Part shown: one piece after another, positions 682 to 20,592 of the stretch
Numbering within the stretch: the stretch's first letter is position 1
Layout: each line of letters opens with the position of its first letter
Source of the DNA: Thermosulfurimonas dismutans
Lineage (GTDB): Bacteria > Desulfobacterota > Thermodesulfobacteria > Thermodesulfobacteriales > Thermodesulfobacteriaceae
DNA length: 32,000 nucleotides
Assembly: GCF_001652585.1 (NCBI RefSeq)
Contig: NZ_LWLG01000017.1
Location: 1 to 32,000, forward strand
Direction of reading: 5' to 3'
Program-made: the position numbers and the translations under genes
The notes under the pieces: model-generated
Seen by the model: only the letters and a program-made list of their open reading frames with translations
Told to the model about the DNA's origin: nothing
Databases searched by the model: none

Positions 682-1077
682 TTAATCTTGCCCTCCGTAA
701 AACCGGTGATAAGCTACGATAGACTCTATGAAATAGACTAATCTCTGAAAGCTTTCCTTGCTTTGGGCTCCGGCTCTAATAGCAGGATCAAGAACTTCCA
801 TTAATGGTTTTAATTTTTCTTCTCTTCCAGCAAGATAAGCCAACTTAGGCCTTAATAAAATAACCTGATCCTTGTCAAATTTAGTTTGAATTTTTCTTAT
901 AGCATCTAAGAACTTCCTAATCTGTGTTGTTTTGATGTTGCAGTCTTTTAAAAACTTACCAATTCCTTCCCCTATTTCTACTATTCTTTCAGCGGATAAA
1001 ACATTTAAATTTTGAAGTTCTTTTTTATATTCGTTTAAATTATCTAATTTAACCTCTCTTTTTCTAGTTTTATTCAT
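682..1077 (-). CDS. csm2: Type III small subunit Csm2 (Cas11)
   Basis: 131-aa helical protein between cas10 and csm3, with an 8-nt overlap with the cas10 stop. Motifs TTQIRKFLDAIRKI, LRPKLAYLAGRE and IVAYHRFYGG resemble the Csm2 family. Confidence 0.65.
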   Translation of the reverse strand: MNKTRKREVKLDNLNEYKKELQNLNVLSAERIVEIGEGIGKFLKDCNIKTTQIRKFLDAIRKIQTKFDKDQVILLRPKLAYLAGREEKLKPLMEVLDPAIRAGAQSKESFQRLVYFIESIVAYHRFYGGQD

Positions 1078-3490
1078 TATCTTCCCTCCTCATGCTCATT
1101 ATTATCCATTGCATAGCTACATGCATTAGTTTCCAGTTCTTTTCAAAATCTAAAGAAAGCAGCCAGTTCTGAAGGGTTAAGTAATCCTTTTTAAGTTTTT
1201 CTCGGTCAAGACGGGATAAGAGATAGGCTATGCGAGGGAGGAAGATGGCTTTGTCTTTCTTATCATCCTCTCGAGTAAGCTCTTGAGCTATATTTAAAAT
1301 CCGATAAAGAAATGCTTTAGAAAAAGGCTCTTTTAAAATTAAAGAAGCTTTTTGAGTATCAGGCTCCAGATACTTTTGCCAGAAATTAAGCATTTCTTTT
1401 AAGTTTATAAGGCTTTCGTTAGGTATAACCTCACCGAGAATGAAAAGAGCGTTTTTTTTGGGGCGCAGATCCTTGGCCTTATCTTCTCCGGCTCCGGCAA
1501 GACGGGCAAACTGATAAACAGGCATTTTAATAGGCCCGAGAGCAATACCGCCCGACAAGGTCAATTCAGGATTGCCCGTATAAGAAGAAAAGGCTTTAAC
1601 AATATCTATTGCAGCTTCACATACATCAAGCCAGGCTCCCATGATAAAAAGATCGTCGCCTCCAGAGTAAATAATGGCTACTTTACGTCCATCTTGGTCT
1701 ATATCTCTCTTAGCCCAGTTAAACCTTTCCGGTGGTTTATAACCCGGCAGATGATTTCTTCCGCAAAGCAGGGTATTCAAATAATACTTAAAGAATAGAT
1801 TTAAACTTCTTGAAATAGCCGATATCCGGGAAAAAGTTTGATCTTCGGGTAATAAACCCTCCTTAAAAATTCGTCCCAGGTTATCCACATCCATCCGAAG
1901 AGCGGACAGCCTGGGAAGCCCAAAACCCTCTTCTTTTATTTTTTCAAATTCCCAAATTCCCTGATAATATCCGCAGGGTAGGAAAGCCTCCGCTCCGGGG
2001 GAAAAGTGGTTTACCGCAAAATAGGTATCATCTTGCGGTTTGCTGTCAAATTCATATCCTTTGTTTTCAATCGTAATAACGCCATGATTGTTTATATTTA
2101 GATAACTTGAAAATAAATTCTTGTTCTTTCCTGATTGTTGCTGAATGTTTTTACCTAAACGATATTCATCATAACAAGCATCACACAAAATTAAGTTTAC
2201 ATCATCAGACCGATTAGAAATATTTACTTCATCCCGAAAACACACTTCGCAGGCTCCGGGAGCCCCTTCCGCTTCAAGGCAGGAAGGGTGAATAGAAATA
2301 GGCTCAAACATGGAGGACAATTGTTCGGAAAACGGCTTTTTCTTGGATTTTTCGAGTTTTTCTGATACTTTTGCAAAAATATCTCCGGCTCTAATCCCCT
2401 TTTTTTGAGAGATAAAAACTTCTTCTCCGAAGGGTTCCCAAACAATATGAAGTTCCAGCAGAGCCTCAAACTTCCGCCAAAGCCAGTCATTAATTTTTCT
2501 TTTTGTGGTTTCGAGAATGCCCTCAGCGCTTTTGGTGTTAGGCAGAAGGAGATAAAAATGTCCGCCTCCGGAAAAAATGACATTGCAGCGATAAAGCCCC
2601 GCCTCGGAAAGGATCCGATTAATAGTGTGTTCCATAAGAAGTTCCAGGAAAAAGGAACGGCCCTTCAGCGAAAGAAGAGCCCCTTTAGAGGAGATGGTAT
2701 AGATGAAATTCTGAACCCCGGAGAGATCTCCACCCACAAGAATAAAAGGCTGTTGATTCCGGTTAGAGAGCTCTTCGATTACAAATTGATGTTTAATAAA
2801 ATCTGGCCCATACTTCTCCTCAAGCCATAGATAATAAACCGAACCGATGGCCGCCGTGAGCTTCAAATGATCGAAAAGGGAAATATCCGGCCAATCTTTA
2901 TATCCTTCTTTGGGCACACATGTTTCTGAAGGAACAAAAGAAAAATATTTTTCTAGAATTACCAGAAGTTTGTTGGGAGAGAGATCGCCATTTTTCGCTA
3001 TTTCTAAAAAATTTTTTTCAAAATTTTCCAAAAGTTCAGCGTATTTCTCAGGAGTAGTCCTGCTAGGACATTTGGCAGCCGAAGGTAAATCAGGAGAAAC
3101 CTCTTCCAAAGGCCAAAAAGCGGGATAGGGATCTTGAGGACGTGGATTTTTAAGAGAAATTCTACTGAAGGGAGTGGCCAGAGGCGCATACCAATCCCAT
3201 TTATAAGGGCCCGTACATTTTCCTTTAGAGGTTTCTCTTTCTCCCGCGGCCAGGTGATCGGCTTTTTGCAGAAGGGCTAAAAGCGGAATCTCTTCGGCTT
3301 CTTTTAAATTATGATGTAGTTCTACTAAATATATTATTTTATTTAATGAGTCTCTACCAATTTCTGAAAGCCTTTTTGAAAGCCATTTAGCCCCTTCTTC
3401 CGAATGATTTTTTCCGGAGTGCCCTTCTTTAGAACGTAAAATAATTTTACCTATGTCATGAAGAAAGCAGGCATTAACAAAGCCTTTCAT
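1070..3490 (-). CDS. cas10: Cas10/Csm1 large subunit with HD nuclease and GGDD cyclase motifs
   Basis: 806 aa. N-terminal HD (CFLHDIGK .. ELHHN), palm SGGGHFYLL, Zn-finger CEVC..CDAC, and cyclase motif IYSGGDDLF (GGDD encoded at nt 1652-1663). Confidence 0.9.
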   Translation of the reverse strand: MKGFVNACFLHDIGKIILRSKEGHSGKNHSEEGAKWLSKRLSEIGRDSLNKIIYLVELHHNLKEAEEIPLLALLQKADHLAAGERETSKGKCTGPYKWDWYAPLATPFSRISLKNPRPQDPYPAFWPLEEVSPDLPSAAKCPSRTTPEKYAELLENFEKNFLEIAKNGDLSPNKLLVILEKYFSFVPSETCVPKEGYKDWPDISLFDHLKLTAAIGSVYYLWLEEKYGPDFIKHQFVIEELSNRNQQPFILVGGDLSGVQNFIYTISSKGALLSLKGRSFFLELLMEHTINRILSEAGLYRCNVIFSGGGHFYLLLPNTKSAEGILETTKRKINDWLWRKFEALLELHIVWEPFGEEVFISQKKGIRAGDIFAKVSEKLEKSKKKPFSEQLSSMFEPISIHPSCLEAEGAPGACEVCFRDEVNISNRSDDVNLILCDACYDEYRLGKNIQQQSGKNKNLFSSYLNINNHGVITIENKGYEFDSKPQDDTYFAVNHFSPGAEAFLPCGYYQGIWEFEKIKEEGFGLPRLSALRMDVDNLGRIFKEGLLPEDQTFSRISAISRSLNLFFKYYLNTLLCGRNHLPGYKPPERFNWAKRDIDQDGRKVAIIYSGGDDLFIMGAWLDVCEAAIDIVKAFSSYTGNPELTLSGGIALGPIKMPVYQFARLAGAGEDKAKDLRPKKNALFILGEVIPNESLINLKEMLNFWQKYLEPDTQKASLILKEPFSKAFLYRILNIAQELTREDDKKDKAIFLPRIAYLLSRLDREKLKKDYLTLQNWLLSLDFEKNWKLMHVAMQWIIMSMRREDNE

Positions 3491-9036: not shown

Positions 9037-9114
9037 TGGCGTCCCCGGCGGGATTTGAACCCACGTTGCCGGCGTGAAAGGCCGGTGTCCTGGACCTGGC
9101 TAGACGACGGGGAC
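9037..9114 (-). tRNA. tRNA-Glu (anticodon UUC), CCA encoded
   Basis: The reverse complement folds as GTCCCCG/TC/GTC..GAC/A/CCGGC-CTTTCAC-GCCGG/CAAC/GTGGG-TTCAAAT-CCCGC/CGGGGAC/G/CCA. It is almost colinear with E. coli tRNA-Glu. Confidence 0.9.
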
Positions 9115-9617: not shown

Positions 9618-9775
9618 TTACGATAAAGCTCCTTGTTTTGAAAGATAATTCCTTTCCGCAAGACGGTAAAGATACGCCGATCCTTACGCCCCGCCACTAC
9701 ACATGAAGTGCCCCCCATTTTTGACACAACCTTTGTGTTAGGCGAAAATACTAGGAAAGGAGGGGGTCACTACAC

Positions 9776-9798
9776 GTCCGCTGAAGCGAATTGTTAGG
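9776..9798 (-). repeat. Truncated terminal attC (R''/L'' arm only)
   Basis: GTCCGCTGAAGCGAATTGTTAGG matches the right-hand arm of the other attC copies. The partner arm (CTAACGCC..CTCAGCGG) is missing at 9700-9775. Confidence 0.6.
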
Positions 9799-10045
9799 AC
9801 TTTATAATCTTTTCATATTCCGAATGTTTACCAATCCAAAACCAAACAATTCCTTCTTCTATTTCTATCCCTATGGCTCTATATTTTCTACCAATCCGCA
9901 CCGACTAGTAATTAGCAACTTTCTTCAAATGCAATGATGGATGGTACGGATCTTTCTTAAGGAGTTCAAAATTCTTATCGGCCAATCTTTTGACTTCTTC
10001 GGGTAACCTCTCATATTCTTTCCAAAAAGAGGGGCTGGCATATGC
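9794..10045 (-). pseudogene. Decayed RelE/ParE-family toxin (paralogue of 10861..11118)
   Basis: Hand translation gives ..YASPSFWKEYERLPEEVKRLADKNFELLKKDPYHPSLHLKKVANY*SVRIGRKYRAIGIEIEEGIVWFWIGKHSEYEKIIKS. It is colinear with the intact toxin but has an in-frame TAG (nt 9905-9907) where the paralogue has Trp, and no start codon. Confidence 0.7.
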
Positions 10046-10223
10046 CGGCCCGGAAATCTTTAATGGCTTGTTCTGCTAATTTTTCTAGTTTTCCTAGTTT
10101 TACATCTCTTTCGAATTCTTTATCCCAAAGTTCCTGTTCAAAATCTTCTATCCACTCTAAGAGGATTTTTAGATCATTTTCTGGCAATTTTTTAATGTTT
10201 TCGATAATTTCGTGGACTTGCAT
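10011..10223 (-). CDS. Antitoxin-like protein (paralogue of 11118..11318), C-terminally extended into the dead toxin gene
   Basis: MQVHEIIENIKKLPENDLKILLEWIEDFEQELWDKEFERDVKLGKLEKLAEQAIKDFRAG parallels MISVEEIKSIIEKLPEREFIELRKWILEKDWENWDKKIEEDSRKGLLDFLIEEALEE. The internal ATG at 10223 is preferred over the track start 10271. Confidence 0.5.
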   Translation of the reverse strand: MQVHEIIENIKKLPENDLKILLEWIEDFEQELWDKEFERDVKLGKLEKLAEQAIKDFRAGICQPLFLERI

Positions 10224-10303
10224 GAAATCGGCCCCCCAGAAAGATTCGATTCTATTTAAAATTTTAACCAATCAAGATAAAATAACCAAATATTTTAATT
10301 TCT

Positions 10304-10364
10304 CCTAACGCCCAAACTCAGCGGCGGCGCCAGTCGGCGCCGTCCGCTGAAACGAGTTGTTAGA
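10304..10364 (-). repeat. attC site (cassette 8/9 junction)
   Basis: Plus strand reads CCTAACGCCCAAACTCAGCGGC-GGCGCCAGTCGGCGCC-GTCCGCTGAAACGAGTTGTTAGA. Arms are inverted, the centre is palindromic, and the hicA stop codon lies in the core. Confidence 0.8.
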
Positions 10365-10572
10365 TTAAATTTTCTTTTTCTTCACCAATAATTTCAAATA
10401 ATTGCTTTACAATCTTAGGATGTAATATCTTTCCGCTATGGAAGGGTAAAACAAAACGTTTGTTTTCTTTCATGTAAATCCTATGACTTCCTTTACTCCT
10501 AATCAATTTAAAACCTGCTTGTAATAATAACTTTTCGGCTTCAACAGCAGTTAATCTTGGTAGTTTAGGCAA
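10360..10572 (-). CDS. hicA: HicA-family mRNA interferase toxin
   Basis: 70 aa. PKLPRLTAVEAEKLLLQAGFKLIRSKGSHRIYMKENKRFVLPFHSGKILHPKIVKQL is a typical HicA/YcfA pattern. It overlaps hicB by 8 nt and appears to use a TTG start. Confidence 0.8.
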   Translation of the reverse strand: MPKLPRLTAVEAEKLLLQAGFKLIRSKGSHRIYMKENKRFVLPFHSGKILHPKIVKQLFEIIGEEKENLI

Positions 10573-10783
10573 CCCTTACCTCTAAAGAAGTAGTCAAAAT
10601 CTCCTTGTTTAATAAAATTCTTTTTTCTTCTTCATCCAAAGTTTCTAAATATAATTCTACAGCTTCTTTAATATTTTCTAGAACTTCATCTAAAGTATCC
10701 CCCTGTGTATGACAACCTTTTAATTCAGGACAATAAGCATAGTATCCAAATTCATCTTTTTCTATTATTACTGTAACTTTCAT
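10565..10783 (-). CDS. hicB: HicB-family antitoxin (UPF0150 fold)
   Basis: 72 aa. MKVTVIIEKDEFGYYAYCPELKGCHTQGDTLDEVLENIKEAVELYLE is the canonical HicB N-terminal domain. Confidence 0.8.
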   Translation of the reverse strand: MKVTVIIEKDEFGYYAYCPELKGCHTQGDTLDEVLENIKEAVELYLETLDEEEKRILLNKEILTTSLEVRVA

Positions 10784-10806
10784 ATTCTACCTCGAATTTA
10801 TTTTTT

Positions 10807-10865
10807 TCTAACGCCTCAACTCAGCGGCTCGCTGTTAAGCGGGTCCGCTGAAGCGGGTTGTTAGG
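10807..10865 (-). repeat. attC site (cassette 7/8 junction)
   Basis: TCTAACGCCTCAACTCAGCGGCTCGCTGTTAAGCGGGTCCGCTGAAGCGGGTTGTTAGG. The toxin stop codon lies in the core. Confidence 0.8.
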
Positions 10866-11118
10866 TTCTTCTTATCATTTTCTCATAATCATCGTGTGTT
10901 CCGATCCAAACCCAAATGTAATCATTTCCGTCTTGGATTGCTAAGGCTCTGTAATAATCAGTTATTCTTACAGACCAAAATTTTCCAACCTTTTTAAAGT
11001 GCAGAGATGGATGATGTGGATTCTTTTTAAGTAATTCGAATTGTTCCTTTGCTCTCTGTTTAACTTTTTCAGGCAAGGCTTCAAAATATTTCCAAAATCT
11101 AGAAGTTGCTTTATGCAC
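10861..11118 (-). CDS. RelE/ParE-superfamily toxin
   Basis: 85 aa. FWKYFEALPEKVKQRAKEQFELLKKNPHHPSLHFKKVGKFWSVRITDYYRALAIQDGNDYIWVWIGTHDDYEKM matches the RelE/ParE-like toxin pattern. It has a 1-nt overlap with the upstream small ORF. Confidence 0.7.
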   Translation of the reverse strand: MHKATSRFWKYFEALPEKVKQRAKEQFELLKKNPHHPSLHFKKVGKFWSVRITDYYRALAIQDGNDYIWVWIGTHDDYEKMIRRT

Positions 11119-11318
11119 TAGATATCTTTTAACTTCCCTTCTCGCTTTTCCTCAAGGGCTTCTTCAATTAGAAAATCCAAGAGACCTTTTCGAGAGTCTT
11201 CTTCAATTTTTTTATCCCAGTTTTCCCAATCTTTTTCTAGAATCCATTTTCGGAGCTCGATAAATTCCCGTTCCGGCAACTTTTCAATTATGGATTTGAT
11301 TTCTTCTACCGAGATCAT
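11118..11318 (-). CDS. Cognate antitoxin (small acidic helical protein)
   Basis: 66 aa, directly upstream of and coupled to the toxin. The W..WD..IE.D...G.LD pattern is typical of partners of this toxin type. Confidence 0.55.
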   Translation of the reverse strand: MISVEEIKSIIEKLPEREFIELRKWILEKDWENWDKKIEEDSRKGLLDFLIEEALEEKREGKLKDI

Positions 11319-11378
11319 TTAACTTCTCTCCAAACTAGATTTATTTAAATTTTTAAGCTATTTTCAGAAATATTTCAA

Positions 11379-11432
11379 CTTAACGCTAATTTCAGCGGCG
11401 GCTATAGCCGTCCGCTGGAGAGGCTTGTTAGA
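11379..11432 (-). repeat. attC site (cassette 6/7 junction)
   Basis: CTTAACGCTAATTTCAGCGGCGGCTATAGCCGTCCGCTGGAGAGGCTTGTTAGA. The core variant is GTTAAGT on the cassette strand. Confidence 0.75.
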
Positions 11433-11478
11433 AGTTTTTATTCTTAAATCTCATGTTTAAGTCCTTTTATATTTTTAC

Positions 11479-12975
11479 TTAATTATATTTTACCTTGGAT
11501 TCTACATAAATTATTGCATTTTCTAATGATTTATTAAAATCATCCACCAACTGTTTATTTTCCTCTTTCCATCTTTTAAAAACTTTTGCACATCCTTTCC
11601 CCCAATATTTCTTTTGTTCACTAAACCACTTTTTCATTTTTTCACGATTATCAGTATTAGGTTTATTTGCAAGAAAAATTTCTTTTGTATATTGACCAAT
11701 TGTTCCCCAAAATTTATCTTCTGGAGATAATGATTTTAAAAAATCATAAATAACATTTTCCGGTCTTTTTTCACCAGGCAAATATACAACATTTTTATAT
11801 CTGCTTTTTTTCTTATCCCCATCTAAAACAATTATACTATAAGGAAATGTTGGAGCTTTATGTTTAAGAAGATTTAAATAATTTTCAGCACCTAAATTAA
11901 GATTAGAAATTTTAACTCGTTTTCTTAGCTTTGGATCTATTATATTTCGCAGAAATATTCTAGCTTCTTCGTCCTCTGTATATAAATTTATTTTAGGATT
12001 TTCATGTGTTGGACATATTTCATAGCGTAAAGCAGATATAATTTGTTTTAACTTATTTAAATTTTGATATGGAATTACTTTTTCACCTCGTTTTTCAAGG
12101 AAAAGAAAACTTATATCGCTTGAATTTGAAAACATTTTATCCTCTAACATTGTCAAAATATCAGTTGAGTGGGTTGTAAAAATAATTTGAATTTTAAATT
12201 CTTTCGAAAATTTTAAAAACACCTCTAATAATTTTCTTTGTGCTCCTGGAAATAAAGTAGCATCAACTTCATCTATTAATAATATTCCCCCTTTATATTT
12301 ATCTTTTAATCTATCCTTAAGTTTTTTAAAAGACAAAATAGCTGTAAGTATTTGACCTAAATTATCTTCTCCAGCAGAATTGCTGAAAGCATCATGTGTT
12401 TTATGAGAGGGCGAATAAAATCTTTTGTGCTGTGTCTTAAAATCTTCAATATTGATTAATTCTTCTGATGCAAAGATTAAGTTGTAATAATGCTCATACC
12501 ACTCTTTATCAGAATTCTCTATTTTTAATGGTTTAAGATTTATATCTTTATCTTTTTCACGAGCAATAGGAAACAACCTTTCTAATCCTAAATATATTAC
12601 AGGCAAATTGATTTTACCTTCACCAGCTGCTTTTTTACCAACATGAATTCTAAATCTTTTTTCTGTCTCATTGTATCCTCTAAAATATGCTTTACGAACT
12701 GTATTATCATCGAAAATCACTTCATAGTCATATTTACTGTTTTTCTCATGCTTGAGAGAGAAACGGAATATTTCGCTAAATTCTGTAGCAAATCTTCGAC
12801 CTAACAGAGTTCGTTGAGTACCTTTAAAATCGAAAATGTGACCTATTAATCCTAAAAGTGCTGATTTCCCCGTACCATTTCTTCCAGCAATAACTGTGAT
12901 TTTTTTACCCACTTCAAATTCAATATTTTTAAGATTTCTAAAGTGATGGATTTTTACACGTTTAATTCTCATCAA
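11479..12975 (-). CDS. ABC/AAA_15-21-type ATPase fused to a Toprim/DUF4435-like C-terminal region (OLD-like); candidate defence protein
   Basis: 498 aa. Walker A GRNGTGKS, signature-like SAGEDNLGQIL, Walker B ILLIDEVDATLFP, H-loop TTHS. The C-terminal region has acidic motifs NLYTEDEEARIFL and IIVLDGDKK, followed by YLPGEKRPENVIYDFL. Confidence 0.65.
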   Translation of the reverse strand: MMRIKRVKIHHFRNLKNIEFEVGKKITVIAGRNGTGKSALLGLIGHIFDFKGTQRTLLGRRFATEFSEIFRFSLKHEKNSKYDYEVIFDDNTVRKAYFRGYNETEKRFRIHVGKKAAGEGKINLPVIYLGLERLFPIAREKDKDINLKPLKIENSDKEWYEHYYNLIFASEELINIEDFKTQHKRFYSPSHKTHDAFSNSAGEDNLGQILTAILSFKKLKDRLKDKYKGGILLIDEVDATLFPGAQRKLLEVFLKFSKEFKIQIIFTTHSTDILTMLEDKMFSNSSDISFLFLEKRGEKVIPYQNLNKLKQIISALRYEICPTHENPKINLYTEDEEARIFLRNIIDPKLRKRVKISNLNLGAENYLNLLKHKAPTFPYSIIVLDGDKKKSRYKNVVYLPGEKRPENVIYDFLKSLSPEDKFWGTIGQYTKEIFLANKPNTDNREKMKKWFSEQKKYWGKGCAKVFKRWKEENKQLVDDFNKSLENAIIYVESKVKYN

Positions 12976-13050
12976 ATCCCCCCTTCTAATTATATTTCTT
13001 TTAAAGTTTCCTTGATTTTCTAAACAATTTTTTCAATTTCTGTTTTTTCT

Positions 13051-13109
13051 TCTAACGCCCAAACTCAGCGGCCGGCAGTCTCGCCGGTCCGCTGAAGCGG
13101 GTTGTTAGG
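13051..13109 (-). repeat. attC site (cassette 5/6 junction)
   Basis: TCTAACGCCCAAACTCAGCGGCCGGCAGTCTCGCCGGTCCGCTGAAGCGGGTTGTTAGG. Confidence 0.8.
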
Positions 13110-13115
13110 AATATT

Positions 13116-13448
13116 TTATTTAAAATCTTTATTTTCTACTAACCAACTATCGTCTGGTTTATAACCATTTTTTATTGCAGCATTATAAAACTGAGTAAAT
13201 CCAGATATGGCTTGGTTTAATGCTAAATCTTCAGTATCGTTCCATGGTCGGCTAGTAATATATGGTCCCGCTTGCAAAGGAGTATGAATAAAATGACTTT
13301 GATAGAATTCATAATATCCAGTTCTGATATTTTTGTATATTTTTATGGTAATAGTTTTCGAAATACCATCTAAAGAAAATTTATACTCTGATACTAATAC
13401 TTTAGCTTCATTAATTATTTCATCTTTAAAAATTTCTTCAATTTCCAT
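13116..13448 (-). CDS. Hypothetical cassette protein (110 aa)
   Basis: Single ORF filling the cassette, with an AGGAGG RBS inside the R' flank. No family recognised. Confidence 0.55.
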   Translation of the reverse strand: MEIEEIFKDEIINEAKVLVSEYKFSLDGISKTITIKIYKNIRTGYYEFYQSHFIHTPLQAGPYITSRPWNDTEDLALNQAISGFTQFYNAAIKNGYKPDDSWLVENKDFK

Positions 13449-13457
13449 AAAAAACCT

Positions 13458-13517
13458 CCTAACGCCTAAACTCAGCGGCCGGCGATTATCGCCGGTCCGC
13501 TGAAGAGGTTTGTTATG
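13458..13517 (-). repeat. attC site (cassette 4/5 junction)
   Basis: CCTAACGCCTAAACTCAGCGGCCGGCGATTATCGCCGGTCCGCTGAAGAGGTTTGTTATG. The ORF stop codon lies in the core. Confidence 0.8.
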
Positions 13518-14388
13518 ATTGCCTTTGTGATTTTTTCATTTCATCTGGAAACAAAATCTCAACTGGCATATCAATATATCCCGAAGCATTCCTTTCCCAA
13601 CAAAGTTTTATCTGTTTAAATTGATATTCAATATATTTATCATCACTTGCAGCTTTAGGTCCAACATATTCATTATACCTGCCAAACGTTTCCCATCTAA
13701 CTTTAATATTTTCTAATTCCATTGCTCCAACTTTTTTAGAAATAAACACAAATCCATCCCAATCAATTCTTAATTGATTTAAAATTCTATCATCTGCTTC
13801 AGAAAAAAGTTCTGCACATTTTTCTTTAGTAAAATCATTGATATGAAATTCTGGATAATGATATTTAAATAAATCTCTATAATCTAAAAATATAGTAGCA
13901 TAAGCTTCATTTCTTAGCTCTATAGGATAATCATTTTTAAGAGATACTAAAAATACTTTCACTTTTCCTCTCAATTTTTTTAAAATAGGAACAAAATCTC
14001 GATCACTAGATAATAAAATTAAAATTTCTACTTCCTTTGCGTAATCCTCTATTTTACTAGAGATAGTTGTATCAACTCCTTTTTCTGAAGAACCAGGAAG
14101 ATCCACTATATCAACATACACTCCTATTTCAGCTTTAAGTCTTTTTAACAATAATTCTTGCTCTTTTTCAGAAAATCTTTGACTCCTAGGACCGAATTTT
14201 TTTTTAGAACACACAAATTCAACAATTTCTGCCTTTTCCTTTACATCAAAATCAGCAAGTTTTTTATTAATGATTTCTCTTAAACTTTCTAAACTTAATT
14301 GTCTAGCAATATGATTTGGTTTAATTCCTAATTCAATAACACGATTAATATAATTAGGTCCATCAACAATAATCGGTATGCCTTGCAT
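13513..14388 (-). CDS. NYN/LabA-like (PIN-like) domain protein with an unknown ~110-aa C-terminal domain
   Basis: 291 aa. The IIVDGPNYINR, EKGVDTTISSKI and LLSSDRDFVPILKKL triad matches the acidic-residue layout of the NYN (DUF88) domain. Confidence 0.65.
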   Translation of the reverse strand: MQGIPIIVDGPNYINRVIELGIKPNHIARQLSLESLREIINKKLADFDVKEKAEIVEFVCSKKKFGPRSQRFSEKEQELLLKRLKAEIGVYVDIVDLPGSSEKGVDTTISSKIEDYAKEVEILILLSSDRDFVPILKKLRGKVKVFLVSLKNDYPIELRNEAYATIFLDYRDLFKYHYPEFHINDFTKEKCAELFSEADDRILNQLRIDWDGFVFISKKVGAMELENIKVRWETFGRYNEYVGPKAASDDKYIEYQFKQIKLCWERNASGYIDMPVEILFPDEMKKSQRQS

Positions 14389-14405
14389 ATTTTTTACCTT
14401 TACCT

Positions 14406-14464
14406 CCTAACGGCCAAATTCACTCGCCCGCCGTATGGCGGGTCGGGTGAAAAGGTTTGTTAGA
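14406..14464 (-). repeat. attC site, sequence-divergent but structure-conserving variant (cassette 3/4 junction)
   Basis: CCTAACGGCCAAATTCACTCGCCCGCCGTATGGCGGGTCGGGTGAAAAGGTTTGTTAGA. Both arms are changed relative to the consensus, yet they remain complementary. Confidence 0.75.
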
Positions 14465-15197
14465 TATTTTTTCTAATATAAAGTATCTCACTATCACTAA
14501 TTCTAGTTTTTATGTCCTCTTCTGAATAATCCAAAAGTTCTACGCATCTGTTGTAATATATTTCATACCATTCACCAAAATATTTATGAAAATCTGTTAC
14601 CATTTTATCAAAGGTCAGCTGTTCAAAATTCGGGCAGTCTTCATTACCTATAACTACTTTTGCTCCACCCAACATAATTCCTTGTTGAGTAAAACCGATA
14701 AGGTGCCCACAAAAATATTTAAGGGATGTAACCTGCATTGAACAGTTATCTTCTTTTTTCTTCGGAGAAGCAAAAGCCGTATGAGCGAAAATTTTATGTC
14801 TATATCTTCTATATTTTTTTATCGCATCTTCTCTCTGTTTTAAGATCTTTTTGTTTACTTCATCGCCAATCTTGTCATGCATATTCTTATATTCTTTTTT
14901 TAAAATATCTGTTAAATTTAAAGCAAAAACAATAAAGGAACCGATACGCCATATTTCTCTTGCTATGAAGGACTCTAATTTAGATTCTTTGACCCCAATA
15001 GCAGGAAATTTTTCTATTAATTTTTTGTTCATCTTAATATCACTTTTATAAGAATTATAAATTTCCAATAATATTCTTAAAATACTATCAATTGAAGAAA
15101 GTATATCTATTGAGGGAATAGTCATTATATAATTTTGAGAATTTCTTCTTAAAGATAGTACTAAATATGGCAAAGAACGAAATGAGTATTCTAACAT
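14460..15197 (-). CDS. Hypothetical cassette protein with a HEPN-like R-x5-H motif
   Basis: 245 aa. KKYRRYRHKIFAHTAF resembles the R[NH]xxxAH HEPN catalytic motif. The protein is otherwise unrecognised. Confidence 0.45.
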   Translation of the reverse strand: MLEYSFRSLPYLVLSLRRNSQNYIMTIPSIDILSSIDSILRILLEIYNSYKSDIKMNKKLIEKFPAIGVKESKLESFIAREIWRIGSFIVFALNLTDILKKEYKNMHDKIGDEVNKKILKQREDAIKKYRRYRHKIFAHTAFASPKKKEDNCSMQVTSLKYFCGHLIGFTQQGIMLGGAKVVIGNEDCPNFEQLTFDKMVTDFHKYFGEWYEIYYNRCVELLDYSEEDIKTRISDSEILYIRKNI

Positions 15198-15222
15198 TAT
15201 CCCTTCCTTTTTAGATTTATCA

Positions 15223-15281
15223 TCTAACGCCTAAACTCAGCAGCCGGCGTATACGCCGGTCCGCTGGAGCGAATTGTTAGA
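15223..15281 (-). repeat. attC site (cassette 2/3 junction)
   Basis: TCTAACGCCTAAACTCAGCAGCCGGCGTATACGCCGGTCCGCTGGAGCGAATTGTTAGA. Confidence 0.8.
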
Positions 15282-15455
15282 TTATTTTCATTTTCCTGTT
15301 CTTTTTCAGAAAAAACGTCCATTATCTTCTTGTTCTCTTCCTTTTAAACCTAAAATCCTGCGAAGCAGTATTCAATTTCTTTTTTATCCTGATTCGCCCG
15401 ACTCTTGAAGTGTATTTCTTACCGATTTATGCAATCAATTCTACGGACCGATCTC

Positions 15456-16103
15456 TCAATTTCTCCTTTTTGCAGAGCTGATTATTGAATTAATATAATC
15501 GTTGATCTCTTTAATTCTTGACCCAAGTATAATATTATAGCCCTTTAGTCTTTTATCCCATACTCTTTTTGCTAAGCGAACAAAATGTAAAAAATCATTT
15601 TTCATATCTTCTTGAAACTCTTCATCAATTATGACTCCAGAAACAGGACCAGTACCTGTGATCCGTTCTGTAAATGATTCTTTTTTATATGCAGTTTTCA
15701 TATCTAAATCGTATCTTACTCCTATACCCAGCTTATCTATCTTCTGGATCCTTTCAAAAGTTTGTTTGGTACATATTCTATATTTGCCATTCGCTCTTTC
15801 TTTGCATTCTGCAATAATTTTACTTAAATTGTGACTGCATTTTCTTGCTACTATATATGCCTCTTTAGCGGTTTCGTCTTTTTTAGATAATCCTATCAGT
15901 ATTGCTTTTAATATGCACTCGAGTGCCATTCTGAGCATAATGAACTGTTTAGTCATAATAGACATGTTGTGAACAGGGAAACTTTGACTGTGATGATATA
16001 GAGCAATCCAATCAGCTGCATCTCTGAAGAAATGGCCAAATAAAACAGCTTTTACATGTGACTCTAAGGAAAACCGTTTGCCAATCTTTTTTAATGTAGT
16101 CAT
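15456..16103 (-). CDS. HEPN-domain-like protein
   Basis: 215 aa. The helix pattern ALECILKAILIGL .. CSHNLSKIIAE .. LGIGVRYD resembles the classical HEPN domain (..E.aLKA.L.. / ..tHdL..L.. / ..RY..). A canonical Rx4-6H motif is not evident. Confidence 0.5.
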   Translation of the reverse strand: MTTLKKIGKRFSLESHVKAVLFGHFFRDAADWIALYHHSQSFPVHNMSIMTKQFIMLRMALECILKAILIGLSKKDETAKEAYIVARKCSHNLSKIIAECKERANGKYRICTKQTFERIQKIDKLGIGVRYDLDMKTAYKKESFTERITGTGPVSGVIIDEEFQEDMKNDFLHFVRLAKRVWDKRLKGYNIILGSRIKEINDYINSIISSAKRRN

Positions 16104-16115
16104 TTATTTATCGTG

Positions 16116-16172
16116 TCTAACGCCAAACTCAGCGGCGCCATGTAATGGCGTCCGCTGAAGAGATTTGTTAGG
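16116..16172 (-). repeat. attC site (cassette 1/2 junction)
   Basis: TCTAACGCCAAACTCAGCGGCGCCATGTAATGGCGTCCGCTGAAGAGATTTGTTAGG. The ORF stop codon lies in the core. Confidence 0.8.
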
Positions 16173-17010
16173 TCTTTTCATTAATAATCCTATTTGCAAA
16201 ATAATTATCAAAAAAGTTTAAAAAGTCTCGAAGTCCCAAAATAATAGAATTAAGTAGTTTCTCTACCTCAAATCTGTCTTGAATTATTGTAACTAAGTAA
16301 TGGTCTCCTCGTTCATAAAAAGAAATATCAATAGAACCAACATGAGTAACATAATCTCTTATATCGCGAACAATAAAAAACCATTCCATGTGATTTTTTA
16401 TGTATTGTTTCATAGTATCATCTGAAATTTCTCCCGATCTATGTTTATCTTTGCAAATATATTTTATATAATCAGAAAAACTACAGAATTGACGAGAACT
16501 AGGACCATACAAGAAATGGAGCATAGTAGCAATTGAATCCATAATACTTCTTACATTAAATAAAAGACCAGCGATCTCTGATTTTAATGCATAAACTTGG
16601 TCACCTATATTAAATGAAGGCTGTCCTGTTCTTGGAAGTATTTTCCGAGTTTTTTGGTAATAAACTTGGATGTCTTTAATTATTTTTTGTATCCTTTCAA
16701 TATTCAAAGTTAAAGAATAAAGCTTATCAGCTATGTATTTAAAGTTAAATACATAATATTGTCCTGCTAAAAAATATTGTCGAATATATCCATTTTTAGT
16801 TTCTATATAATATCCTATATGATGAAATCTTTCCCAATATCTAGTCTTTAAAATAGCTTTTCTAAGTTGTGGAAAAGGATCTTTTAAAGCAGGTATTGTA
16901 TAACTAACTAGTTTACCCCGGGAGGGAGATAAGCTTACTCTGTAAGTATTCCTTAATCTTTCTTGTATTTTCTCTTGCGCTTGTTTAGTTTTTATAATTT
17001 CAAAACGCAT
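16168..17010 (-). CDS. Hypothetical first-cassette protein with a possible HEPN R-x4-H motif
   Basis: 280 aa. The C-terminal half contains WFFIVRDIRDYVTHVGS (RDYVTH = Rx4H). No family recognised with certainty. Confidence 0.45.
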   Translation of the reverse strand: MRFEIIKTKQAQEKIQERLRNTYRVSLSPSRGKLVSYTIPALKDPFPQLRKAILKTRYWERFHHIGYYIETKNGYIRQYFLAGQYYVFNFKYIADKLYSLTLNIERIQKIIKDIQVYYQKTRKILPRTGQPSFNIGDQVYALKSEIAGLLFNVRSIMDSIATMLHFLYGPSSRQFCSFSDYIKYICKDKHRSGEISDDTMKQYIKNHMEWFFIVRDIRDYVTHVGSIDISFYERGDHYLVTIIQDRFEVEKLLNSIILGLRDFLNFFDNYFANRIINEKT

Positions 17011-17075
17011 TTTTATTTATCTAACATTACTTTTATACTTTCTTAGATTTAAAGCCTATTGCCAATATTTTTGGA

Positions 17076-17105
17076 ATGATAGCTTTTTACAATAAAAAAT
17101 GTCAA
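17076..17105 (-). promoter_or_regulatory. Candidate cassette promoter Pc (TTGACA-18 nt-TATCAT)
   Basis: On the minus strand, the -35 TTGACA is at 17105-17100 and the -10 TATCAT at 17081-17076. It points into the cassette array from within attI. Confidence 0.4.
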
Positions 17106-17222
17106 ACATTAAGATTAAATCTTATTACGAATCTCTTGAGATAATAGAGGATAAAAATGTTTATTTTTATTTTTATGTCTTAAAATTTCTTAAAATCTAA
17201 CTTTCTGGATAATACACAAAAT

Positions 17223-17251
17223 TTGCCTAATTTTGCAAAGTAAAATAAGAT
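17223..17251 (+). promoter_or_regulatory. Candidate intI promoter (TTGCCT-17 nt-TAAGAT)
   Basis: Hexamers at 17223-17228 and 17246-17251, about 40 nt upstream of the intI ATG. Confidence 0.3.
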
Positions 17252-17290
17252 GGCTTGCAGATAATATCTTTGCTGGCAAAAAGGATCAAA

Positions 17291-18358
17291 ATGGAATCGC
17301 AAGAAAAGTTGATGGAAAAATTTGGGGCCTTTCTCAAGAAGGTGGAAAAGCGAGAAAGGGTGGTCCCCTTCATGGTGCGGTGGGTGGTGCAGGCCCTGCA
17401 GGAATATGAACTGCCCCCCGGACAAAAGTTAGCCCCCGCTCAGAAAAAACAATTTCTCTTTAAATTATCCCAAAAATACGAGCCTTGGCAAGTAGAACAG
17501 GCTGATCGGGCCTTAAAGCTATATGAGTATTTCCTGAACACCTTATCCCAAAAATCTCCGACAGAGAGGACAGAGGCCGAATGGGCGGAGGCCTTGGAGA
17601 AGGCCAGAGAGGTCCTCAGGCGCAAACGGTACTCCTACCGCACCGAAAAATCTTACCTTGACTGGATAAGATGCCTGGCCGAATATCTGGACTACAAATC
17701 ACCGGAAGAAGTTTCCGGCGAGGATTTTCAGGATTTTCTCACCCATCTTGCCGTGGAAAGAAACGTAGCCCCTTCCACCCAGAATCAGGCTTTAAATGCC
17801 CTGGTGTTCTTTTATCGCCATGTGCTCGAAAAAGAAATTGATCCCTATATTGAGGCCGTAAAGGCCCGGGAGAGAAGAAGGCTTCCGGTGGTGCTAAGCC
17901 GGGAAGAGGTGGAGGCCGTGCTCTCGGTCTCGGAACTTGAGGAAACCTATTATCTAATCTGTGCCCTCATGTATGGAGGGGGCTTGAGAGTAAGTGAGAC
18001 GGTAAGACTCCGGGTAAAAGATCTGGATTTTGAACGAGGCTTGATCACGGTATTTTCCGGCAAGGGAGACAAAGACCGGGTAACCGTAGATCCGCGGACT
18101 GAGACCGTGCGTCGGCATCACATCCATCCCAGTGCGGTGCAACGGGCCTTCAAGAAGGCGCTACGGAAGGCCAGAGTGGAAAAACCCGCTACGGTGCATT
18201 CCCTGCGGCACAGCTTCGCTACCCACCTCCTTGAGGACGGCTACGATATTCGTACCATTCAGGAACTTCTGGGGCACAAGAGTCTGAGCACCACTATGAT
18301 TTACACTCATATCGTGGGACGGCGGGTCACCGGGGTGGTGAGTCCGCTTGACCGCTAA
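17291..18358 (+). CDS. intI: Integron integrase (IntI-type tyrosine recombinase), apparently lacking the IntI-specific insertion
   Basis: The sequence is colinear with IntI1 as I recall it. Matching blocks are RYSYRTEKSYLDWIRCLAEYL, STQNQALNALVFFYRHVL, RRLPVVLSREEV, GGLRVSETVRLRVKDLDFERGLITVFSGKGDKDR, DPRTETVRRHHIHPSAVQRAFKKA, HSLRHSFATHLLEDGYDIRTIQELLGH and TTMIYTH. The ATG at 17291 has an AAGGA RBS, whereas the track start 17255 is a TTG. Confidence 0.85.
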   Translation: MESQEKLMEKFGAFLKKVEKRERVVPFMVRWVVQALQEYELPPGQKLAPAQKKQFLFKLSQKYEPWQVEQADRALKLYEYFLNTLSQKSPTERTEAEWAEALEKAREVLRRKRYSYRTEKSYLDWIRCLAEYLDYKSPEEVSGEDFQDFLTHLAVERNVAPSTQNQALNALVFFYRHVLEKEIDPYIEAVKARERRRLPVVLSREEVEAVLSVSELEETYYLICALMYGGGLRVSETVRLRVKDLDFERGLITVFSGKGDKDRVTVDPRTETVRRHHIHPSAVQRAFKKALRKARVEKPATVHSLRHSFATHLLEDGYDIRTIQELLGHKSLSTTMIYTHIVGRRVTGVVSPLDR

Positions 18359-19487: not shown

Positions 19488-19560
19488 TGGGCCGGGCAGG
19501 ATTCGAACCTGCGACTCCTGGCTTAAAAGGCCAGTACTCTGCCAGCTGAGTTACCGGCCC
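19488..19560 (-). tRNA. tRNA-Lys (anticodon UUU), CCA not encoded
   Basis: The reverse complement reads GGGCCGG/TA/ACTC-AGCTGGCA-GAGT/A/CTGGC-CTTTTAA-GCCAG/GAGTC/GCAGG-TTCGAAT-CCTGC/CCGGCCC/A. This is a perfect 73-nt cloverleaf. Confidence 0.9.
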
Positions 19561-19572
19561 GGTTATGGGCTT

Positions 19573-19601
19573 AAATTACCCTTGAACTCCAGGGCTGTCA
19601 A
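19573..19601 (-). promoter_or_regulatory. Candidate tRNA-Lys promoter (TTGACA-17 nt-TAATTT)
   Basis: On the minus strand, the -35 is at 19601-19596 and the -10 at 19578-19573, 12 nt before the tRNA 5' end. The IS target duplication begins at the first base of the -35. Confidence 0.45.
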
Positions 19602-19611
19602 GAATTATTAA

Positions 19612-20561
19612 GAGGGTGTTCGAAAAAACTAGATATTGACGTTGGGGGAGCCTAGAATTAACTCCCCCAACATGAGAAGAAGCAAACTGCGTCTCAAGAC
19701 CATCTTCAAAATAACCCGAGCCATAATAAATGAAAAGCCCCTGGCCTTTCGAGGTCGCCCAAAAACTTATTCCGATGCCTTCATTATCTCTATCTTCCTC
19801 TACCAAACCCTAAAAAATCTATCCTACCGAGAAGCACTAGAAGAGGCCTTCGATATATTGGGACGAAGACCCGCCCTTTCTACCTACCACTACCGAGTCT
19901 CAAAATTCCCTAAACAATCCCTGAAAATCCTTCTCCAAGAATTGGCCCGAAAACTTCTAGCAAAAGAACATCACCTCTTTTCCTTTATCTCTGATGGCAC
20001 CGGCTTTAGTTATCATGACCTCTACCCTTTAAAATTCTTAAGAGGCTCAGAAATCAGAAAAGTAAAAGCCCATATAAGAGTGGTCCCCATAATCGGAGTA
20101 ACTTCATCCGGAAAAAGAATCGTCATTACCGCTGAAACCGGAGGTCCCTATGCCAGCGAGGTAAAACTTCTCCTGGAAGCTCTGGCAGAAATTGATCCAG
20201 TCACTTTTAAAGCCGAATGTTTTATAGCAGATAAATGCTATGACAGTCTCAAGGTCATGGAAAAACTTGTAGAGCTTGGATTAAAACCGGCCATAAAAGT
20301 AAAAGAAACCTTCAGGCAGAAGGTAAAACATCCTCTGCGGAAAGATTCCAGAATTTTCTGGGAGAAATGGGGCCGAAATAGATATCTGATTGAAAGTTTG
20401 TTTGGTACGGTAAAACTGAAAATAGGCTCGCATTTTAGGGTAAGAAAGGAAGAAATAGCCCAGAAGAGAGGACTGGCCGCTTTTGTGCTCTATAATATGT
20501 ACCTCCTGGCTACCCTCCTCTATATCTCGTTGCTCCTTAAAAACTATTTTCGAACACTCTC
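19612..20561 (+). mobile_element. Insertion sequence (950 bp, IS4/IS5-superfamily DDE transposase)
   Basis: The terminal inverted repeats are GAGGGTGTTCGAAAA (19612-19626) and the complement of TTTTCGAACACTCTC (20547-20561), matching at 14/15 positions. They are flanked by a perfect 11-bp direct repeat AGAATTATTAA (19601-19611 and 20562-20572). Confidence 0.75.
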
Positions 20562-20592
20562 AGAATTATTAAAAGCCTTTTCATCCCAATAA
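19672..20592 (+). CDS. DDE transposase (IS4/IS5 superfamily)
   Basis: Acidic triad context FISDGTGFS / CFIADKCYDS / RYLIESLFGTVKLK (R-x3-E-x6-K). The ATG at 19672 is preferred over the TTG at 19636. The ORF reads through the right IR, and its stop (20590-20592) lies in flanking DNA. Confidence 0.7.
   Translation: MRRSKLRLKTIFKITRAIINEKPLAFRGRPKTYSDAFIISIFLYQTLKNLSYREALEEAFDILGRRPALSTYHYRVSKFPKQSLKILLQELARKLLAKEHHLFSFISDGTGFSYHDLYPLKFLRGSEIRKVKAHIRVVPIIGVTSSGKRIVITAETGGPYASEVKLLLEALAEIDPVTFKAECFIADKCYDSLKVMEKLVELGLKPAIKVKETFRQKVKHPLRKDSRIFWEKWGRNRYLIESLFGTVKLKIGSHFRVRKEEIAQKRGLAAFVLYNMYLLATLLYISLLLKNYFRTLSELLKAFSSQ

Follow-up and report, generated by a model that had tools for sequence, protein, structure and literature searches.

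Three single-gene cassettes nearest the candidate promoter of an integron encode HEPN-like proteins from three unrelated families

The first 32,000 nucleotides of contig NZ_LWLG01000017.1 of Thermosulfurimonas dismutans (RefSeq assembly GCF_001652585.1), a stretch referred to throughout as the window, hold a complete integron, and the subject of this report is the three cassettes that lie closest to its candidate promoter. Each of them carries a single open reading frame (ORF), and we consider it fairly probable that the three products, designated C1, C2 and C3, are solitary abortive-infection effectors of the HEPN superfamily. The three proteins belong to three unrelated families, C1 being Cthe_2314-like, C2 HEPN-T/AbiV-like but without the canonical motif, and C3 AbiU2-like. 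The features on which the argument depends are these:

16168 to 17010, minus strand: C1, 280 residues, sole ORF of the first cassette after attI
15456 to 16103, minus strand: C2, 215 residues, sole ORF of its cassette; all-alpha protein, putatively of a non-canonical HEPN-T/AbiV-like type
14460 to 15197, minus strand: C3, 245 residues, sole ORF of its cassette; AbiU2-like HEPN candidate
17255 to 18358, plus strand: intI, the integron integrase gene, its transcription directed away from the cassette array
17076 to 17105, minus strand: candidate Pc promoter, TTGACA-18-TATCAT, pointing into the array from between intI and the attI core
17019 to 17025, minus strand: attI core GTTAGAT, read from the sequence; boundary of cassette 1, 8 nucleotides upstream of the C1 start codon
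16115 to 16173, minus strand: attC of cassette 1, single-stranded DNA hairpin of -16.6 kcal/mol, z -5.96
15283 to 15455, minus strand: ORF-less stretch of 173 nucleotides between the C2 stop codon and the attC of cassette 2, fold z -1.66, with weak attC similarity
15222 to 15282, minus strand: attC of cassette 2, single-stranded DNA hairpin, z -3.72
14405 to 14465, minus strand: attC of cassette 3, single-stranded DNA hairpin, z -3.35

What is set out below on the anatomy of the integron and its cassettes, on their content of one gene each, on family relationships and on residue conservation is a matter of direct observation. The product of the intI ORF scores 310.7 bits on the TIGR02249 integron integrase model (cut-off 265) and also shows the Phage_integrase and SAM_4 domains, and nine attC sites, related to one another and each some 60 nucleotides long, follow in sequence on the minus strand, leftwards from around 16173 to around 9750. 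We took an integron gene cassette to be a promoterless unit between attC sites (RYYYAAC...GTTRRRY, with a folded hairpin) that stands in an array beside intI and attI; all three units are of this kind, with lengths of 904, 893 and 817 bp, and the hairpins of the attC sites that end them carry bulged bases. The candidate Pc agrees with the consensus at 11 of 12 positions and is the top site within 14300-17600, a ranking that reflects consensus match alone. The attC hairpins, intI, attI and this promoter-like site thus bear out the claim of an earlier, sequence-only note (the original prediction) that C1, C2 and C3 occupy the single-gene cassettes nearest a candidate Pc, and the three ORFs, their lengths and the peptides that it quoted from them are likewise all present.

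Three further observations concern the integron as such. The intI ORF as listed begins at a TTG codon, about 110 residues before the first match to the integrase profile (region 17180-17425); the real start probably lies further downstream, in which case the intI-attI intergenic region with its promoter-like sites would be wider. The guanine-plus-cytosine (GC) content is about 30% across the cassette array (9700-17050) against about 55% in the flanks, and the nine attC sites form one homogeneous sequence family despite the AT-rich cargo: the genes carried have a foreign look, the sites of recombination a local one. Finally, tRNA genes bracket the integron, one past intI (with a DDE transposase, 19488-20592) and one past the last attC (9040-9114).

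How much weight can a short motif bear in proteins of this kind? A string of the form Rx4-6H, the motif associated with HEPN ribonucleases, occurs at about chance level in proteins of this size (there are two in C1 and one in C2), and it acquires weight only from its conservation across homologues. Scans of the window proteins against Pfam, NCBIfam, PHROGs and PADLOC returned nothing for C1 or C2 and, for C3, only an AbiU2 match of 13.5 bits; PADLOC-DB 2.0, a check that had been proposed at the outset, gave no match to any of the three at E<=1. The three proteins are, on the other hand, not the orphans they had been called, since homologues number 80 for C1, 132 clusters for C2 and about 16 for C3 (10 close and six distant genomic ones). 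Across all three families, those that have a name or annotation are without exception "hypothetical protein", and the majority are unnamed. It is at the level of these families that the HEPN reading withstands comparison with profiles, and it does so unevenly; none of the window proteins by itself attains a Pfam gathering score.

For C1, the peptide VRDIRDYVTHVGS corresponds to residues 214-226 and contains R218-DYVT-H223, an Rx4H string in which R218 is retained by 65 and H223 by 77 of the 80 homologues; K143, R154, W210, S226 and D268 are invariant in the family. The PF18730 model (HEPN_Cthe2314) is matched at E<1 by 13 of 41 C1 homologues, the best of which, P0016, reaches 27.7 bits against a gathering threshold of 27.1 (E 3.2e-6, residues 146-241) and is the only one to exceed it. 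Further matches are to HEPN_Apea, in eight homologues, and, weakly, to the N-terminal HEPN1 region of the Cas13b model, in three. All of these HEPN matches cover the motif region, which places the putative HEPN domain at approximately residues 120-270, and the N-terminal stretch of about 120 residues is conserved and has no family assignment. As far as profiles can tell, there is good support for a HEPN identity of C1 at the family level. Several C1 homologues have neighbours of interest: one adjoins a ResIII helicase-methyltransferase and an Mrr endonuclease (locus L011), another a TIR protein gene (L010), and a third, P0006, has immediately downstream of it a genuine PF18734 AbiU2 gene, in the company of transposases and a caspase (L002, 5001-6583). 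Among the loci examined, no neighbour gene recurs between clades of C1 homologues.

C2 presents a more complicated case. The peptides ALECILKAILIGL, CSHNLSKIIAE and GVRYD, in which a classical HEPN helix pattern had been seen, all occur in the protein, and a HMMER scan of 1.8 billion representatives widened its family from four relatives to the 132 clusters mentioned above. Across 93 diverse relatives with 15-30% identity, K52, E62, K66 and Y131 are invariant and D28, H91 and R130 almost invariant, and 77 of them have D or E at position 134. The pattern is real and conserved, but it comes without an Rx4-6H motif. PF05168, the classical HEPN model, matches neither C2 nor its four close homologues, and is matched by seven of the 93 distant relatives (best E 9.8e-5); 21 relatives match the PADLOC candidate PDC-M28A weakly. 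The AlphaFold2 (AF2) model of C2 is all-alpha, with a predicted local distance difference test (pLDDT) value of 78, and its highest Foldseek probabilities all belong to HEPN structures, namely sacsin 3o10 (0.89), ST0689 1wol (0.69), AF0298 2hsb (0.51) and the 7bxo_G toxin (0.44), at E 0.5-2.4 and template-modelling scores of 0.44-0.64 on the target. In this model E62 lies in helix 47-71, H91 in an insert, and R130 and D/E134 after helix 113-124. A published survey describes a HEPN-T/AbiV subtype in which D replaces the motif H and an alternative H is found elsewhere; in AF0298-like proteins, of which 2hsb (AF0298) is the exemplar, and in AbiV, this alternative histidine comes from an insert between helices 2 and 3 (PMC3710099). 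Family alignment and predicted structure together partly support the view that C2 is HEPN-like but non-canonical, with catalysis itself uncertain.

One can perceive a different explanation for these same features, namely that C2, and possibly also those C1 variants in which the arginine is missing, are HEPN-like without being catalytic and serve as nucleotide or RNA binders, adaptors or regulators. The absence of a conserved Rx4-6H would be accounted for in this way (the sole instance, R10-H16, is unconserved), as would the fact that the top Foldseek probability falls to the sacsin HEPN domain 3o10, such a role having been proposed for the human sacsin HEPN; moreover, motif-less and possibly non-catalytic HEPN versions are noted in PMC3710099. 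However, the set of polar residues that stays invariant or nearly invariant at 15-30% identity resembles an active site, the same survey argues that the alternative histidine of the AF0298/AbiV type can supply activity, and AbiV-type genes are real defences that rank among the commonest known ones of chromosomal integrons. On balance we regard a purely non-catalytic role as rather unlikely.

The cassette that carries C2 has a peculiar tail. The 173 nucleotides that follow the C2 stop codon, the one place in the three cassettes with room to spare, were checked for a hidden antitoxin ORF (>=20 residues), a tandem RNA repeat as in type III toxin-antitoxin systems and a structured RNA, and none that was plausible or significant was found. 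Given the faint attC similarity of this stretch, the tail may be a decayed attC or remnant, and cassette 2 may thus have merged with an empty cassette that has since decayed. The closest C2 homologues, at 63-65% identity, themselves lie between attC-like sites (L006, 330-1107; L060, 27-798), with cores by the start and stop codons and hairpin z values of -2.6 to -3.7. A metagenome scan with C2 found no relatives.

In C3, the peptide YRHKIFAHT, which had been said to fit a HEPN RNase motif, occupies residues 132-140, where a helix ends in R133-H-K-I-F-A-H139-T-A; a further helix, REIWRIGSFIVFALN, is conserved as well. The claim is borne out by the family, because the R-x5-H pair is invariant in all 10 close homologues, together with K135, F137, A138 and T140, and is kept as RN[KR]VFAHT in the six distant genomic relatives, which have 21-29% identity and are spread over five phyla (Syntrophales, Dehalococcoidales, Planctomycetota, Polyangiaceae and Parcubacteria). 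The family motif can be written R-[NHD]-K-x-F-A-H-T. PF18734 (HEPN_AbiU2) is matched below threshold by seven of the 10 close and three of the six distant relatives, with 13.5 bits for C3 itself and 20.3 bits (E 4.2e-4) for the best relative; the gathering threshold of 26.8 is reached by no member of the family. The second most frequent match in the family is to another HEPN, DZIP3. The AF2 model (pLDDT 77) consists of long helices, with the motif at a helix end that runs into a loop, and in HEPN proteins the Rx4-6H is placed at a helix end or loop start (PMC3710099), although the motif loop is modelled with low confidence. We hold the HEPN assignment of C3 with moderate confidence.

It could be argued that at least one of the three proteins, C3 being the likeliest, falls outside the HEPN superfamily altogether, and that motif and weak matches reflect convergence in a generic helical protein. 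The AbiU2 matches all stay below the gathering score and are limited to about 50 residues round the motif, a comparison of C3 with a bona fide AbiU2 protein by hhalign gave a probability of 0.3, which is a null result, and the C3 model has no counterpart in PDB or BFVD. Chance convergence would, however, have to produce AbiU2 in 10 of 16 members and then, as the next family, one that is also HEPN; it would have to make R and H the most conserved residues of the family even at 21% identity; and it would have to place the motif where a HEPN protein would have it, as judged by setting the AF2 model against PMC3710099. Such a coincidence seems unlikely to us.

The closest genomic homologue of C3, from a metagenome-assembled genome of the Syntrophales (L014, 5880-6830), lies between attC-like hairpins with z values of -3.7 and -3.95. 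For such loci, attC calls were made by direct reading and single-stranded DNA folding, a home-made attC detector having been dropped after it recovered six of the nine sites of the window and none in the homologous loci (below shuffled controls). The closest homologues of C2 and C3 are flanked by attC-like hairpins of different sequence types, and these genes are therefore in circulation among the cassettes of several lineages; further copies of C2 and C3 homologues are solitary and stand next to unrelated genes, and gene GC content is below that of the flanks in every homologous locus checked. A tblastn search of plasmids returned nothing for C1 or C3 and one unannotated Hymenobacter match for C2. 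As a separate matter, a linked pair of C3 and the NYN gene that follows it in the array was considered and rejected: the gene after the C3 homologue encodes a sugar kinase in L012 and is unrelated in L014.

Several results weigh against the reading of C1, C2 and C3 as HEPN effectors and should be taken together. First, none of the three singly attains the threshold of a curated Pfam, NCBIfam or PADLOC model, searches of the PDB with family profiles (E<=10) yielded only coiled-coil and designed-protein noise and no solved structure, and hhalign detected no relationship between the three families. Second, the structural comparison suggested at the outset (AlphaFold with Foldseek) gave C2 its weak HEPN matches, with nothing below E 0.1, and gave C3 no match in PDB or BFVD. 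Third, C2 has no conserved Rx4-6H, R130 being followed by Y-D-L-D-M-K, which makes its RNase assignment the weakest step of all, and in C1 the position of R218 is a histidine in 14 of the 80 homologues. Fourth, neither C1 nor C3 had a relative in the viral contigs that were scanned. Finally, the survey of homologue context, which found C2 and C3 homologues borne on cassettes and some C1 homologues near defence genes, also revealed a large clade of C1 homologues from soil, high in GC, that stands alone in stable chromosomal surroundings made up of response-regulator, TetR, DUF892-like and iron-permease genes. This stress-type setting looks less defence-like and cautions against assuming a defence role for the whole family.

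If C1, C2 and C3 nevertheless are HEPN effectors, as we favor, their action might proceed as follows. Each protein would be made from the attI-proximal promoter and would form a homodimer that does no harm as long as the cell is uninfected. On a cue from a phage the protein would be switched on, and it would then cut host or phage RNA via a dimeric R/H site (or, in C2, via the E62/H91/R130 set), and this cutting would stop translation and abort the infection. No antitoxin would be needed, because activity would be gated rather than neutralised, as in other solitary HEPN abortive-infection proteins. HEPN RNases as a class cleave RNA without metal, as dimers with a composite R/H active site. The activity as an RNase, the dimer, the trigger and the role in defence are all proposed here by analogy with HEPN families (PMC3710099) and with the integron precedents discussed below.

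Two extensions of this scheme, which we rate jointly as quite improbable, deserve a mention. First, the C2 family may be a clade with a new catalytic set, in which D28, K52, E62, K66, H91, R130 and Y131 would replace the canonical Rx4-6H and perhaps serve a new chemistry or target. Second, proteins of the C1 type and the AbiU2 type could be parts of a two-HEPN system that integrons assemble from separate cassettes. The latter idea arises because the two types co-occur in this array, adjoin one another in L002, and echo the published operon of the Bxe_C0808 family with AbiU2 (Table 1 of PMC3710099).

Beyond the three cassettes, the array continues with the following genes:

13513 to 14388, minus strand: cassette 4, a solitary NYN-domain protein of 291 residues (PF01936 NYN, E 4.5e-8)
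11479 to 12975, minus strand: single-gene cassette for an ABC-type ATPase of 498 residues (AAA_15 and AAA_21)
10360 to 11318, minus strand: two toxin-antitoxin cassettes, with HicB-HicA at 10360 to 10783 and a small ORF with a ParE-like toxin at 10861 to 11318

Profile matches thus uphold the presence, in the same array, of NYN, HicA (with HicB) and ParE-like genes, the relevant values for the latter cassettes being E 1.8e-13 for HicA_toxin, 3.8e-10 for HicB and 8e-10 for ParE_like. The ATPase matches the PADLOC model ATPase-Toprim_I-B over its full length (E 3.9e-20), as well as the PtuA, AriA and GajA models, and by these profiles it is probably a further compact defence gene. The NYN protein is extended at its C terminus by about 120 residues to which no function is assigned, and the cassette that follows it (13116-13448, minus strand) encodes a protein of 110 residues with no family match. 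The leftmost part of the window contains type III-A CRISPR-Cas genes (682-3490, minus strand), those for Cas10/Csm1 (806 residues, HD and palm domains) and Csm2.

It had also been claimed that C1, C2 and C3 have no partner gene, of the MNT type or other, and this is what we find: there is one ORF per cassette, and no conserved partner gene in any of the roughly 55 homologous loci examined. Unlike them, HicA and the ParE-like toxin each have a small upstream gene in their cassette, HicB in the one case and an unassigned 66-residue ORF in the other. The idea that C1, C2 and C3 are toxins orphaned from former two-gene systems (HEPN-MNT or other), whose partner went missing as the gene turned into a cassette, and now survive as inactive, attenuated or silenced passengers could appeal to those small upstream genes, to the frequent pairing of classical HEPN proteins with MNT antitoxins and to the match of part of the C2 superfamily to the "A" component of the multi-gene PADLOC candidate PDC-M28, but it is very improbable, given the lack of any recurrent partner, the absence of an operon partner for Cthe_2314 in PMC3710099, the intact ORFs with their conserved residues of catalytic type, and the fact that the nearest homologues of both C2 and C3 are single-gene cassettes as well.

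What, then, do these three cassettes add? The original prediction had called them possibly undescribed, and this was an overstatement: the family named "Integron cassette HEPN" (PDB 3jrt) has been known since 2013 (PMC3710099), Esos and Taranis are single-gene HEPN integron cassettes of V. cholerae with proven anti-phage activity, and HNPBCG_15845, an integron cassette of V. mimicus with an AbiU2 domain, confers protection against T4 and T7. Since the literature already contains both HEPN cassettes of this solitary kind and their part in defence, C1, C2 and C3 extend a known type of cargo; they are best filed as divergent additions to known HEPN families on a known vehicle, and they open no new category. 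The families of C2 and C3 are captured by no curated model at threshold, which is a modest novelty at the family level. Should the three proteins prove active, they would represent three small HEPN families, uncharacterised and easy to test, and they would extend the notion of integrons as stores of compact anti-phage genes beyond Vibrio, here to what appears to be an environmental bacterium of high GC content with strikingly AT-rich cassettes. At least five solitary effectors of nuclease or ATPase type (the three HEPN-like proteins, the NYN protein and the OLD/Gabija-like ATPase) precede the two classic toxin-antitoxin cassettes, and the array therefore offers a convenient natural panel in which to ask how an integron can afford toxins that look ungated in the positions where its expression is strongest.

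A comparison with individual known systems places each protein more closely. The nearest counterpart of C1 is the Cthe_2314-like family (PF18730), described as a solitary HEPN family without a conserved operon (Anantharaman et al. 2013, PMC3710099): the C-terminal half of the C1 family aligns with it across the Rx4H and both are solitary, whereas C1 itself is unmatched and the C1 family has the additional conserved N-terminal region of about 120 residues. The C1 homologue beside an AbiU2 gene also recalls the separate Bxe_C0808 family. C3 shares with AbiU2 (PF18734) the R-[NH]-K-x-x-A-H motif and the single gene, and with the V. mimicus example also the integron cassette setting, but differs in its score (13.5 bits against a threshold of 26.8) and in that the similarity is confined to the motif region. 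C2 resembles the AF0298-like/AbiV proteins of the HEPN-T class (PF05168) in having E62 in an early helix, H91 in an insert and R130 followed by an acidic residue; it departs from them in lacking a Pfam or PADLOC match to AbiV or HEPN, with only the seven of 93 distant relatives touching PF05168. The HEPN-MNT (type VII) systems are similar in fold class, their toxins 7bxo, 7ae6 and 7ae8 being among the weak Foldseek matches of C2, but neither the cassettes of C1, C2 and C3 nor the homologous loci contain an MNT or other partner, and the regulatory logic must therefore differ. As vehicles, the closest parallels are 3jrt, Esos and Taranis, which are likewise HEPN-type proteins encoded as single-gene integron cassettes; 3jrt has no profile match to the three families (E<=10) and is absent from the listed Foldseek matches of the C2 and C3 models, and the hosts of Esos and Taranis are Vibrio, while the host here lies outside that genus, to judge by its flanks of 55% GC and by the Syntrophales origin of the genomic relative closest to C3.

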